From: Patescibacteria group bacterium
GTDB lineage: Bacteria; Patescibacteriota; Patescibacteriia; Patescibacteriales; UBA12465
NCBI GenBank assembly: GCA_049318005.1
Contig: JBMOHE010000006.1
Coordinates: 1 to 51,985 of the forward strand
Direction of reading: 5' to 3'
DNA length: 51,985 nt
Shown here: piece after piece, positions 1 to 51,985 of the stretch
Layout of the letters: the number at the start of each line of letters is the position of its first letter
Numbering within the stretch: the first letter of the stretch is position 1
Notes under the pieces: generated by a model
Databases searched by the model: none
What the model saw: only the letters and a program-made list of their open reading frames with translations
Told to the model about the DNA's origin: nothing
Made by a program: the position numbers and the translations under genes

Positions 1-117
1 AACAAGAAGAGTGAGGAAGTAGAATCTCTTAACCTCAACTTGAACAAGAAGAGTGAGGAAGTAGAATCTCTTAACCTCAACTTGAACAAGAAGAGTGCGG
101 AAGTAGAATCTCTTAAC
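1..117 (+). repeat. 42-bp tandem repeat (at least 2.8 copies) encoding NKKSEEVESLNLNL
   Basis: Units 1-42 and 43-84 are identical; partial unit 85-117 has one substitution. Confidence 0.97.
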
Positions 118-28652: not shown

Positions 28653-29030
28653 GGGGATGCAAGGCATCGACAGTCGGATCTTTTTCTGAATATTCAAGGC
28701 GTGCTTAGTTACTCACGTTAAACTGACTAAAAAATACAATTGTCAAAACGGCAAGAGCTTTCACTTGGGCAACCCCAAGTTATGCTCCAGTTTTAGCCTA
28801 AAGGTTAAAACCATCAGCGGGCTGTGAGTCTTCATAGCGGTCAACTGGTGTTATAATCATGAAGATAGAAATTATTTGCTCTTAACGAATAGTTTCGAAA
28901 CAAAATTAAGATCGCCTCAACCGCTTTTGTTCGGTTTCTGATGGTTGGAGCTAAAAAAATAAATCGAACTACTCTTGTAAATGTATTTAGGAAAACCGGT
29001 TGGACATGGGTTCAACTCCCATCATCTCCA
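28653..29030 (+). ncRNA. ssrA: tmRNA
   Basis: 5' GGGGATG pairs with 3' CATCTCC-A (G3.U alanine identity); T-arm GGTTCAACTCC; tag frame 28742-28801 ending ..PVLA*; adjacent to smpB. Confidence 0.95.
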
Positions 29031-29033
29031 CAT

Positions 29034-29117
29034 GCCGCGGTGGCGGAACTGGTAGACGCGCTGGACTTAAAATCCAGTTGTAGCGATACAGTGCGGGTTC
29101 GATTCCCGCCCGCGGCA
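29034..29117 (+). tRNA. tRNA-Leu(TAA)
   Basis: GCCGCGG acceptor stem, CTGGA-ct-TAA-aa-TCCAG anticodon arm, long variable arm, GGTTCGATTCC. Confidence 0.97.
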
Positions 29118-29147
29118 CTTTAGTAGTTTAAGGAATCAAAACGATAC

Positions 29148-29219
29148 GCGGGTATCGTATAGTGGTTATTATGCGACCTTGCCAAGGTCGAGAGACGGGT
29201 TCGATTCCCGTTACCCGCT
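29148..29219 (+). tRNA. tRNA-Gly(GCC)
   Basis: GCGGGTA/TACCCGC acceptor stem, CGACC-tt-GCC-aa-GGTCG, U discriminator. Confidence 0.97.
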
Positions 29220-29224
29220 CAGAT

Positions 29225-46324: not shown

Positions 46325-46837
46325 ATGTCTAATCGACATTTAGCGAGAACTATCGCTTTGCAAACTTTGTTTGCTTGGGATTTTAATGGAAAAAAAGATA
46401 GCATTTTAGACAGTGTCATTGCTGATAATTTTGCTAATTTTGCGCCAAATTTTGATGATGGCGGCTTTGTTAAAGACTTGGTAAAGGGGGTCGCGGCTGA
46501 TTATTCTAAACTTGATGCGCATATTATTAAATATGCGACTGAATGGCCGCTTGATCAAATAACAGCCATAGATAGAAATATTTTGAGACTCGGTATTTAT
46601 GAACTTTTATATACCCCTGTTCCTCCACGCGTAGTTATCAATGAAGCGATTGAGGTTGCTAAGAGTTTTGGGGGAGATGCTTCGGGTAAGTTTGTTAATG
46701 GTGTTTTGGGAGCTCTATATAATGATGAGCCAGAAATTCAGAAACGCGATAATAAGGAAGAGGCTGAAGCAGCTAAGGCTGAGGAAGAAAAAAATAAAAA
46801 GGAAGAAGAAAAAACTAAAGAGACGCTAGAATCCTAA
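46325..46837 (+). CDS. nusB: Antitermination factor NusB
   Basis: [34 protein letters not shown]. Confidence 0.97.
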
Positions 46838-46869
46838 GCGTCTTTTGTTTATTATTTATAAATTGATTT

Positions 46870-47568
46870 ATGACCGCGACCGAAATAGCTAGACTACAAA
46901 GAAAAATAGGTGTTAATTTTAAAAATGAAAGTCTAATTAAACAGGCGCTTGTTCATCGATCTTATCTGAACGAACATCCGGATTTTAAAATTGGTCATAA
47001 TGAACGACTAGAATTTTTAGGCGATGCGGTTTTAGAAATTGTAGTAACTGAGTATTTATATTTAAATTTTGCAACTACTCCGGAAGGAGACTTAACTAAT
47101 TGGCGCGCCTCTTTAGTTAACGCAAAGATGCTCTATGAGATTGCGGCCGAACTAGGGGTAGAAGAATATTTATATTTATCAAAAGGAGAATCAAAAGATA
47201 AAAATAAAAAATCACGCCAATTTATTTTAGCCAATTCAATTGAAGCAATCATTGGTGCGATATATTTAGACCAAGGAATGGAGGCGGCCAAGCCATTTAT
47301 TTTAAAGAATGTTGTTTCTAAGCTAGATAATATTTTAAAGAATCAAACTTATCTTGATCCAAAATCTCGATTTCAAGAAAAGGCTCAAGAAGATCGAGCA
47401 GTTACGCCGCATTACCAGATTATTGATGAAGTAGGCCCGGATCATGCAAAAATTTTTACAGTTGGTTTATATCTCGGCGAAGAATTAATCACTACCGGAA
47501 AGGGATCCTCTAAACAAGAGGCACAGGTTGAGGCAGCCGCTGATGGTCTTAAAAAAATGAATTGGTAA
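46870..47568 (+). CDS. rnc: Ribonuclease III
   Basis: NERLEFLGDAVL, EAIIGAIYLD, dsRBD GPDH..G.GSSKQEA. Confidence 0.98.
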   Translation: MTATEIARLQRKIGVNFKNESLIKQALVHRSYLNEHPDFKIGHNERLEFLGDAVLEIVVTEYLYLNFATTPEGDLTNWRASLVNAKMLYEIAAELGVEEYLYLSKGESKDKNKKSRQFILANSIEAIIGAIYLDQGMEAAKPFILKNVVSKLDNILKNQTYLDPKSRFQEKAQEDRAVTPHYQIIDEVGPDHAKIFTVGLYLGEELITTGKGSSKQEAQVEAAADGLKKMNW

Positions 47569-47571
47569 TCT

Positions 47572-48630
47572 ATGGATATTAATAAGATTTTTAAATTGGC
47601 CGCCGAAAAGAGGGCCTCTGATATTCATTTACTTTATGGTCAGCCACCAATTTTTAGAATTGATGGTCAGTTAATTGATATTAATGAAGTTGTTACTGAT
47701 GGAAACTTTTTACAATTAACAGAAGTTAATTTAGAAAGTTTTTTAAATGCCATTTTAACTAAAGAACAAAAAACTCGTTTTTATGATAAGCGTGATCTAG
47801 ATTTAGGTTATCAAATAGAAGATTATAGATACCGCGTTAATTGCTCATTTGAAAAAAATAATGTTGTTATTGTGGCTCGTGTGATTGATGAGCGCAAACC
47901 AACGCTTAAAGATTTAGGCATGCCAGCTGTTATAGAAGAATTATTAGATTTACCACAGGGCTTTATTTTAATTACTGGTCCGACGGGTTGCGGTAAATCA
48001 ACTACCCTCGCCGCCATGGTTAACCATATTAATGATCATCGTCGCTGTAATATTGTTACTTTAGAAGATCCGATTGAATATATTTTTAAACCAAATAAAA
48101 GCATTGTTGTTCAAAGACAGTTGGGTAGTGATATGTTAACCTTTGCTTCTGGCTTGAAACATGTTTTACGCCAAGATCCAAATGTTATCATGCTTGGAGA
48201 AATGCGTGATCCCGAAACAATCGCAACCGCCGTTACACTAGCTGAAACCGGACACCTTGTTTTAGCGACTCTTCATACATACAGCGCCGCTCAAACTATT
48301 GATCGTATTATTGACGTTTTTCCTCCTTACCAACAGGGTCAAATTAAATCCCAGTTATCATCAGTTTTATCAGCGGTTATCTCTCAGCGTTTATTAGTTA
48401 GAAAATCTGGCGGTAGAATTGCTGCCCGAGAAATTCTTTTGAATAATGGCGCGGTTTCTAATTTAATTAGAGAGGGTAAGATGGCTCAAATTAAAAGTAC
48501 GATAGAAACAAACTCCTCAATTGGGATGATTACTTTAGACAGACATATTAAACAATTGTTCCAAGCTGATGAAATTAGTCGCGAAGATGCTATCCGCCAA
48601 ATGGAAGATCCAAATTCGCTAGAAGACTAG
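47572..48630 (+). CDS. pilT: Type IV pilus retraction ATPase, PilT/PilU family
   Basis: ASDIHL, GPTGCGKST, EDPIEY, LRQDPNVI, TGHLV..TLHT, AVSNLIRE. Confidence 0.93.
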   Translation: MDINKIFKLAAEKRASDIHLLYGQPPIFRIDGQLIDINEVVTDGNFLQLTEVNLESFLNAILTKEQKTRFYDKRDLDLGYQIEDYRYRVNCSFEKNNVVIVARVIDERKPTLKDLGMPAVIEELLDLPQGFILITGPTGCGKSTTLAAMVNHINDHRRCNIVTLEDPIEYIFKPNKSIVVQRQLGSDMLTFASGLKHVLRQDPNVIMLGEMRDPETIATAVTLAETGHLVLATLHTYSAAQTIDRIIDVFPPYQQGQIKSQLSSVLSAVISQRLLVRKSGGRIAAREILLNNGAVSNLIREGKMAQIKSTIETNSSIGMITLDRHIKQLFQADEISREDAIRQMEDPNSLED

Positions 48631-48716
48631 AACTGTTAAAAGTTTATTTATATTTTACTAATTTTTTGCTTGTTAATAAGGTGTTAATAGAATAAATGAG
48701 TAGATAATTTTCCTTT

Positions 48717-48745
48717 AAAAATGGCCCAAATTTAGGCCATTTTTT
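48717..48745 (+). terminator. Terminator after pilT
   Basis: AAAAATGGCC-caaattta-GGCCATTTTTT. Confidence 0.8.
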
Positions 48746-48761
48746 GTTAATCAGTCAGGGC

Positions 48762-48789
48762 TTGACATTATTTTTAAAACAGCTATAAT
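48762..48789 (+). promoter_or_regulatory. Putative rRNA promoter
   Basis: TTGACA-16-TATAAT; perfect hexamers with the 16-bp spacer typical of E. coli rrn promoters. Confidence 0.85.
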
Positions 48790-48829
48790 TGTACTCAGTT
48801 AAAACAGGGCTATAAAAGCCGTAAATAAT

Positions 48830-48871
48830 ATGCAAAAACAGTTAAGAAATTATGTTAATAAGCGATTCTAA
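48830..48871 (+). other. Candidate 13-aa leader peptide MQKQLRNYVNKRF
   Basis: ATG in aaataatATG context like other starts in this window; stop TAA 48869-71. Confidence 0.4.
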
Positions 48872-48896
48872 TAATCCGCTATTTTGCGATTAATAG

Positions 48897-48918
48897 AACC
48901 GCCGAAAGCGGTTTTTTT
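48897..48918 (+). terminator. Terminator-like hairpin in the 23S leader
   Basis: AACCGC-cgaaa-GCGGTT plus T run. Confidence 0.65.
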
Positions 48919-48927
48919 GCGCCCCTG

Positions 48928-48940
48928 AGTTCGTTAACAA
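48928..48940 (+). promoter_or_regulatory. boxA-like antitermination site
   Basis: AGTTCGTTAACAA versus consensus TGCTCTTTAACAA; located in the rRNA leader. Confidence 0.6.
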
Positions 48941-49084
48941 TTCATGTTAGAGTAAAGATACAAAAATATAGAGTAAGTATATATAGATGTCTTATTCCCT
49001 TGTCTCAAATTTTTCGTCCGAGATAAAGGGGCTGTAATAAGATCATCAAAACAGATTTTAACGTTTTTAAAGATAAAAGCGTGG

Positions 49085-51985
<2,901 letters not shown>

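Follow-up and report, generated by a model that had tools for sequence, protein, structure and literature searches.

A conserved 13-codon reading frame and two competing RNA hairpins precede a stand-alone 23S rRNA gene in Patescibacteria and suggest ribosome-mediated attenuation

Introduction

How the synthesis of ribosomal RNA (rRNA) is matched to the need for ribosomes is a classic question, and it is raised in an unexpected form by the leader of a 23S rRNA gene in a Patescibacteria group bacterium (order Patescibacteriales; NCBI GenBank assembly GCA_049318005.1). The leader lies near the end of contig JBMOHE010000006.1, which was analysed over its entire length of 51,985 nucleotides (nt) and is referred to below as the window. 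Between a consensus promoter and the rRNA gene, the leader holds a short open reading frame (ORF) and a hairpin followed by a run of T residues, and the question is what a start codon and a terminator-like structure do in front of an rRNA gene. An initial annotation, made from the letters of the window, had proposed that the ORF is translated and coupled to the terminator, giving ribosomes direct feedback on the synthesis of their own rRNA. The core of this proposal is supported here by conservation in relatives, and the function attributed to the leader would follow from the predicted folds. We consider it probable (roughly 65%) that the leader acts as a ribosome-mediated (leader-peptide) transcription attenuator gating a stand-alone operon of 23S and 5S rRNA.

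Results

Architecture and conservation of the 23S leader

The leader opens, as had been claimed, with a perfect sigma-70-type promoter (48762..48789; this and all features below are on the forward strand), in which TTGACA (48762-67) and TATAAT (48784-89) are separated by a 16-nt spacer and all 12 consensus positions are matched. Three promoter-like sites, this one included, occur in 47500-49400, where shuffled sequences give 6.9; that the layout exceeds chance is shown by its conservation in relatives and by the statistics of the reading frame. Across 73 distinct copies of the leader a 12/12 promoter stands at most 90 nt upstream of the ORF in 62, and one matching at least 10 of 12 positions in 72. 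The genome of the window (G000; 1.05 Mb) holds 26 perfect promoters of the form TTGACA-16..18-TATAAT. From the promoter geometry, transcription would start at 48797..48798, 7-8 nt past the -10 element, and AGTT at 48797-48800 is invariant among 29 sequences of the genus. A start at about 48797 would leave a 5' untranslated region of some 33 nt, and transcripts ending at the terminator would measure about 121 nt.

This architecture is conserved. When 61 related genomes were searched at the DNA level, the leader was recovered from 26 genomes of the genus besides that of the window. Homology in 15 of these 26 sets in precisely at 48761, one base ahead of the -35 element, and extends across the leader into the 23S gene. 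In the 29-30 leaders of the genus hardly any change is seen in the promoter, in the ATG, in the final two codons and the stop codon with the stretch from there to the hairpin, or in the stems of that hairpin, its T run and the core of a boxA-like site. A covariance model (R1), built from 24 diverse copies of the leader, matches 116 of 151 sampled genomes of the order (94 of 114 high-quality genomes, 67 of 83 genera and 21 of 26 families), one family of the order giving no match in nine genomes, and 11 of 150 other sampled genomes of the phylum. Among the 30 best loci of the order the 23S gene starts 145-415 nt downstream in 28, the contig end being reached in the other two; the ORF has 13 codons in 29 and 14 in one, and a promoter is recognised by pattern in 29. 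The 11 loci from the rest of the phylum have the 23S gene 57-424 nt downstream in nine cases and an ORF of 13-15 codons in ten. Most genomes hold one R1 match and five hold a second, four of these second matches being weak, located at the 5' ends of protein genes and rejected as false positives. The fifth is a true 23S leader in a bin with a further, genus-like copy. Genome G109 holds two full leaders (C6:24198-24296 and C5:17200-17301 of that genome), one of them nearly identical in type to that of the window's genus though the bin is filed in another family; G109 (5% contamination) is probably a mixed bin. No Rfam family reaches its gathering score within 48790-49084, and in a permissive scan all matches stay far below that score, the best E-value in this interval being 0.034.

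An open frame of fixed length

The leader ORF (MQKQLRNYVNKRF; 48830..48871) comprises 13 codons from the ATG at 48830 to the stop codon TAA at 48869-71, exactly as first annotated. The same length, counted from the aligned ATG, is found in 29 of 30 loci of the genus, and the remaining one, with a 1-nt deletion, has 14 codons. The frame contains no stop in any of the 28 unique sequences, whereas the other two frames contain 43 and 33 stops, distributed over 22 and 25 of the 28 sequences, respectively. When the 27-nt variable part was shuffled, an in-frame stop arose in 16.6 of 27 sequences on average, and never in fewer than six in 20,000 shuffles. The coding part is free of insertions and deletions (indels) in 28 of 29 genus sequences, while the flanks do carry indels.

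In the alignments of the genus, the nine codons following the ATG vary freely in sequence, not in length. The entropies at codon positions 1, 2 and 3 (1.21, 0.87 and 1.17), together with the very different peptides, indicate a weak constraint on the peptide itself. Neither a conserved enriched codon nor a conserved residue was found in the variable part of the ORF, in the genus set or in the 73 copies, and no conserved arrest motif is evident in the peptide. Conservation of the peptide is confined to its final two residues, whose codons are dictated by the RNA helix described below: the third positions of these two sense codons are invariant, and the third base of the stop codon is A or G only, both of which pair in that helix. 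The conserved property of the leader is an open frame of fixed length, not a peptide sequence.

In the wider set, ATG is present in all 73 distinct copies and T precedes it (position -1) in 69. One of the 73 copies is interrupted by a stop in this frame ahead of the switch; the other two frames are interrupted in 66 and 62 copies, and shuffles of the same copies produce an in-frame stop in 46.1 on average and in no fewer than 31. The ORF has 13 codons in 57 copies, 14 in 11, 12 in two, 15 in two and 10 in one. The stop codon is found 5-13 nt past the core G in 72 of the 73, and in 72 of 73 it lies inside or just past the 5' arm of the antiterminator. As to the start, GGAG or GAGG is found at -18..-4 in just 15 of 636 long ORFs of genome G000 (shuffles, about 1%), and these ORFs start behind A-rich sequence, 71% of them with T at -1; AAA is frequent as their second codon. 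The leader ORF, with its A-rich context, T at -1 and no Shine-Dalgarno sequence, follows the genome's own pattern; because Shine-Dalgarno sequences are nearly absent genome-wide, the lack of one here is normal.

Two mutually exclusive folds

The hairpin and T run of the initial annotation correspond to a predicted intrinsic terminator (48895..48918) with an 8-bp stem (48895-902 with 48908-915), a CGAAA loop, a T7 run at 48912-18 and a folding energy of -9.4 kcal/mol. A consensus terminator scan of 47500-49400 listed none, despite two clear sites of hairpin and T run visible by eye; in our reading, the scan likely extends the stem into the T run, leaving too few T residues. Counted from the conserved start, the ORF stops 25-30 nt before the 5' arm of the terminator.

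A second, larger hairpin, here called the antiterminator (48862..48902), is predicted both by the minimum free energy fold and by the RNAalifold consensus of 29 genus sequences. Its 5' arm (48862-48879) is made up of the last two sense codons of the ORF, the stop codon and 8 nt more, and its 3' arm (48886-48902) contains the 5' arm of the terminator. The two hairpins share 48895-48902 and are mutually exclusive. Exclusivity had been claimed from the outset, for a pairing of AGCGATT (48861-67) with AATCCGCT (48873-80) or alternatively of CCGCT with AGCGG in the 3' arm of the terminator. The exclusivity stands and these pairings can be drawn here, but the partner differs, as CCGCT stands at this place in one of 29 genus sequences and the conserved competitor is 48862-48902. 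In other families the ORF ends in AGC GGT and a stop codon, copying the 3' arm of the terminator and pairing with the same 5' arm, and this pairing often continues across and past the stop codon, in sequences particular to each family. No upstream segment that would pair with the antiterminator arm, as in the 1:2 pairing of trp, is present in the RNAalifold consensus of the 29 genus sequences.

The antiterminator is the more stable fold, with -14.8 versus -9.4 kcal/mol in the window, median values of -15.6 versus -9.5 kcal/mol over the 73 copies, and an advantage over the terminator in 72 of them. Folding with and without the ORF masked, a comparison suggested in the initial annotation, gives results in line with its proposal. 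When the leader is cut before the 3' arm of the terminator, the antiterminator forms in all 73 copies; for the uncut leader, the minimum-energy fold contains the antiterminator in 50 copies and the terminator in 22. When the stretch from the start codon to 10 nt past the stop codon is masked as single-stranded, in imitation of a ribosome whose footprint size was taken from general knowledge, the terminator forms in 71 of 73 copies, and the mask never touches the 5' arm of the terminator.

Both helices are also maintained in alignments. In alignment A3, consisting of the 74 R1 matches (73 distinct) and fitted to the antiterminator, a fit that favours this hairpin, the antiterminator positions pair in 83.2% of cells as compared to 27-44% with the partner slid; eight of ten pairs change on both sides (65 cells), which none of 500 shuffles reaches. 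In an unfitted MAFFT alignment (A2, 24 sequences) the corresponding values are 82.1% paired versus 24-44% slid. The terminator pairs in 95.3% of cells versus 25-70% when slid (73 distinct sequences); its loops vary and its stems are kept, with double-sided changes in three of seven pairs. For the two predicted helices this support is strong with regard to conservation and moderate with regard to covariation.

Other elements of the leader, and leaders without the frame

Downstream of the T run follows a boxA-like element (GTTCGTTAACAAT; 48929..48941), which we take to be akin to the boxA of E. coli rrn operons, and then the 23S gene from 49085, in the order originally described. The 23S leaders of the genus retain the TTAACAA or TTGACAA core of this element, as do those of other families, there at a variable distance from the terminator. 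A block directly after it (48945..48968) is nearly invariant in the genus alignments and contains no properly spaced pair of -35 and -10 elements. The remaining spacer holds a long variable hairpin (48986..49047; fold of -19.6 kcal/mol), which is replaced by shorter hairpins in some relatives of the genus. At the 5' end of the leader, a small hairpin with a GGCU/AGCC core (P0; 48807..48821) folds with -5.3 kcal/mol and ends 9 nt before the ATG; judged by eye in the alignments, its stem sequences differ among relatives of the genus yet still pair. RNAalifold also draws a long-range GGG:CCC pairing between this region (48807-48809) and a stretch just past the T run (48921-48924). Four metatranscriptome runs, inspected as contigs, cover only the mature 23S from about 49096 on, mostly from other organisms, and are uninformative on the leader.

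The initial annotation had suggested a comparison of the leaders of rRNA genes across relatives. Ahead of 23S the ORF and terminator are conserved; ahead of 16S no conserved ORF is present in the eight leaders examined (three from the genus, and five of 18 from other families, the remaining 13 loci having no promoter by the pattern used and not being examined), and R1 has no match in the three 16S loci of the genus. For the leaders examined, a copy of the device on 16S was rejected. The eight 16S leaders (L031-L033, from genomes G007, G005 and G028, and L096, L104, L106, L111 and L115) have a promoter of their own, an AU-rich hairpin without a visible antiterminator, a T6-7 run and a boxA-like site reading CCTTAAAAA or CCTTAACAA.

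The 23S-5S unit and its surroundings

The window is one entire contig (C6), and its final 2.9 kb are the 23S rRNA gene (49085..51985; Rfam LSU_rRNA_bacteria, 2363.6 bits, model positions 1-2800 of 2925), truncated by the contig end. Contig C15 of the same assembly opens with positions 2746-2925 of the 23S model, followed by 5S rRNA, and C6, ending at model position 2800, and C15, starting at 2746, probably adjoin. As C15 carries the end of 23S together with 5S, the transcription unit is 23S-5S. A stem for processing of the 23S is predicted by folding, its 5' strand at 49064..49092 pairing with the 3' end of 23S and the trailer on C15; the reverse complement of window positions 49066-49092 matches C15:154-180. 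On C15 a canonical terminator follows the 5S gene, and a consensus promoter is located at C15:510-538. A 16S gene is lacking in this assembly; three genomes of the genus that are complete or nearly so have it about 75-79 kb from the 23S leader. As 16S and 23S are unlinked, the 23S gene requires a promoter of its own.

Upstream of the unit, nusB (46325-46837), rnc (encoding RNase III) and a gene for a pilT-like ATPase span 46325-48630. NusB matches PF01029 at 2.7e-36 and the product of the pilT-like gene is T2SSE/PilT-like; two genes for rRNA transcription and processing (nusB and rnc) are hence neighbours of the rRNA gene that their products serve. A hairpin with a T run (48716..48745), read from the sequence, closes the pilT-like gene and would separate the 23S unit from upstream transcription. 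Elsewhere in the window, a transfer-messenger RNA gene (28653-29220; tag VKTARAFTWATPSYAPVLA) is directly followed by tRNA-Leu(TAA) and tRNA-Gly(GCC).

Discussion

A proposed mechanism

The arrangement described above suggests a simple switch, for which we infer that the ORF is translated and that transcription can end at the hairpin; the direction and physiological meaning of the control would follow from the folds. Transcription would begin at about 48797 from the consensus promoter, and the nascent leader would bear a 13-codon ORF, the last two codons and stop codon of which form the 5' arm of the antiterminator (48862-48902), while the 3' arm of this hairpin includes the 5' arm of the intrinsic terminator (48895-48918). 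If the ORF is free of ribosomes, the antiterminator would fold first and, being more stable, would leave no terminator, and the polymerase would continue over the boxA-like site into 23S and 5S. If initiation is prompt, and a ribosome occupies the last codons or the stop codon as the polymerase reaches the T run, the 5' arm of the antiterminator would be hidden, the terminator would fold and a leader RNA of about 121 nt would be released. Read-through would then fall as the capacity for translation initiation rises, a direct negative feedback of functional ribosomes on the synthesis of large-subunit rRNA.

Several points weigh against this attenuation model. The first group concerns the RNA itself. 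The terminator is a modest one, with its 8 bp and -9.4 kcal/mol, and both helix cores are almost invariant, so that much of the support is conservation and not covariation; in alignment A2 the number of antiterminator pairs with double changes (four) is no better than in shuffles (351 of 500). Relatedness among the sequences compared, and a retrieval model that already includes the ATG and the helix, moreover make the counts overstate independence. A second group is formed by leaders without the frame: the eight examined 16S leaders carry a terminator-like hairpin and T run, followed by a boxA-like site, with no ORF, and a 23S leader (L040, genome G043) from the family without R1 matches (0/9) has a promoter and a hairpin with T run before boxA and no ATG-started leader ORF. 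As the hairpin persists in leaders that lack the ORF, its role may be independent of translation, or it may be passed by other means. A third group concerns physiology. The model presumes that transcription and translation are coupled in these organisms, and it predicts that the slower elongation during starvation gives more, not less, read-through, which is counter-intuitive. A RelA/SpoT homologue (C3:42528-42857) and a zinc-finger protein of the DksA/TraR type (C8:38392-38493) are present, and conventional promoter control may act alongside the device, which need not be the sole control. For the same reason, a loss of the stringent-response machinery was rejected as a rationale for the device.

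Alternative explanations

The alternative that survives best retains the device and changes the signal. Translation stress, such as that caused by antibiotics or other ribosome poisons in the environment, would leave ribosomes stalled early or not initiating, which would free the antiterminator and raise 23S-5S synthesis as compensation. Its structure is identical to that of feedback by translating ribosomes, and the two are inseparable by sequence; general stress-sensing upstream ORFs are moreover known in bacteria, as described in passages of PMC12121999 and, for bmrCD, of PMC4191407. The leader peptide, however, has no conserved arrest motif, its only conserved residues being the last two with their codons fixed by the helix, and no resistance gene is located downstream, which makes stress sensing an unlikely primary role.

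Less probable by a clear step is an independent small gene, encoding a 13-residue peptide or an RNA of about 120 nt, with 23S transcribed by unregulated leak-through or from an unrecognised downstream promoter. Such a gene would account for a unit with its own promoter and terminator. A downstream promoter, already regarded in the initial annotation as a rival to exclude, was sought in 69 loci over the stretch from the T run to 23S; no locus scores 11/12 or more there, and nine score 10/12. These weak matches, which could be taken in favour of a small gene, arise mostly via TTGACA within the boxA-like site, and a second promoter after the terminator was rejected, the boxA TTAACA or TTGACA having no conserved -10 element at the right spacing. 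An ordinary small gene would also have no need for an ORF end that is always one arm of a helix competing with the terminator, nor does it explain why the peptide drifts freely with length and frame fixed, or why the unit is present solely in front of 23S.

Equally improbable is a switch operated by RNA or protein, in which the ORF is untranslated and a protein, a ligand or nucleoside triphosphate levels select the hairpin. The similar hairpin without an ORF in the examined 16S leaders speaks in its favour, as a non-translational passage may exist. It leaves unexplained, however, the invariant ATG in its native context (73/73), the fixed length of 13 codons and the lack of in-frame stops in AT-rich sequence, and the leader matches no Rfam family. 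The least credible of the alternatives, an amino-acid-sensing attenuator of the trp/his type that reads the charging of one tRNA via regulatory codons, shares the layout of ORF, antiterminator and terminator, but has to contend with a variable part that shows no enriched conserved codon or residue, with the lack of an upstream segment sequestering the antiterminator arm (cut folds give the antiterminator in 73/73) and with regulated genes that are rRNAs.

Two further schemes were rejected. Rho-dependent leader-peptide control of the tna type would require Rho, and no match to the RNA-binding domain Rho_RNA_bind was found in the 98.68%-complete genome G000, as compared to matches in nine of 14 control genomes. 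A coupling attenuator of the pyrBI/pyrE type, in which the ribosome melts the terminator, would require an ORF running into the terminator, whereas the stop codon falls 25-30 nt short of its 5' arm and the mask never reaches that arm.

Comparison with known systems

Leader-peptide attenuators control amino-acid operons in enterobacteria (trpL, hisL, leuL, pheL, thrL and ilvL). Like these trp-type attenuators, the 23S leader has a short ORF between promoter and intrinsic terminator and an antiterminator sharing a strand with the terminator, and as in the trp 'excess' state, a ribosome at the end of the ORF would hide the antiterminator strand and allow the terminator to form. Unlike in the trp type, regulatory codons and an upstream pairing segment are lacking, and absence of translation would lead to read-through and not to super-attenuation. 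The product is moreover 23S-5S rRNA instead of an mRNA, and the quantity sensed would be translation itself. In the E. coli pyrBI, pyrE and ampC attenuators, a ribosome reaching the terminator prevents its formation, and translation thereby raises read-through. Termination in the 23S leader would likewise depend on the closeness of ribosome and polymerase or on the availability of ribosomes; here, by contrast, the ORF stops 25-30 nt before the 5' arm of the terminator and translation should favour termination.

The rrn leaders of model bacteria are normally untranslated and are not known to contain a leader ORF. The present leader may share a boxA with rrn antitermination leaders, in the form of the boxA-like element between promoter and rRNA gene; NusB is encoded just upstream, and a long processing stem flanks 23S. 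Its boxA-like site is however located downstream of the intrinsic terminator and cannot protect against it, and, unlike in the rrn system, no Rho RNA-binding domain was found in the genome. In rrn antitermination, as set out in passages of the SuhB paper (PMC4807359), boxA acts with NusB/NusE and other Nus factors.

The model of ribosome feedback regulation of rRNA synthesis is due to Nomura and co-workers, and passages of PMC2320978 that present it state that in E. coli the proposed feedback had never been shown to be direct. As in that model, translating ribosomes would lower rRNA transcription; unlike it, the wiring would here be direct, cis-acting and limited to the 23S-5S unit. A resemblance also exists to leader ORFs that respond to translation stress, namely toiL-topAI (PMC12121999), bmrB-bmrCD (PMC4191407) and vmlR (PMC9226507), in which, according to passages of these papers, a short ORF reports the state of translation and not one amino acid, some of them attenuating transcription. 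The genes controlled there, as those passages describe, are resistance or toxin-antitoxin genes turned on by stalled ribosomes, in contrast to an rRNA and a leader without an evident arrest motif in the present case. No rRNA leader containing a leader ORF or an attenuator is described in the literature covered by a full-text search, outside which most subscription journals fall; within this scope, the initial statement that no such case was known has held up.

Implications

If the attenuation model is true, a translated frame that flips a terminator would be a simple physical link from translation capacity to rRNA transcription; ribosome feedback of the kind long pursued in E. coli would then exist in direct, cis-acting form. 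Being small and equipped with a consensus promoter and an ordinary intrinsic terminator, the element lends itself to testing in vitro or in a surrogate host. It also makes it probable that part of an rRNA precursor undergoes translation, a possibility ignored by annotation pipelines. The element occurs in a very large and mostly uncultured bacterial group, the host here being ultra-small, with unlinked rRNA genes and no detectable Rho. The chances appear even that in many Patescibacteria the ribosome would serve as its own sensor, a 13-codon frame on the nascent 23S-5S precursor deciding between termination and read-through. With 16S and 23S unlinked and the ORF confined to the 23S leader, such a device may also help to balance the output of the two ribosomal subunits.

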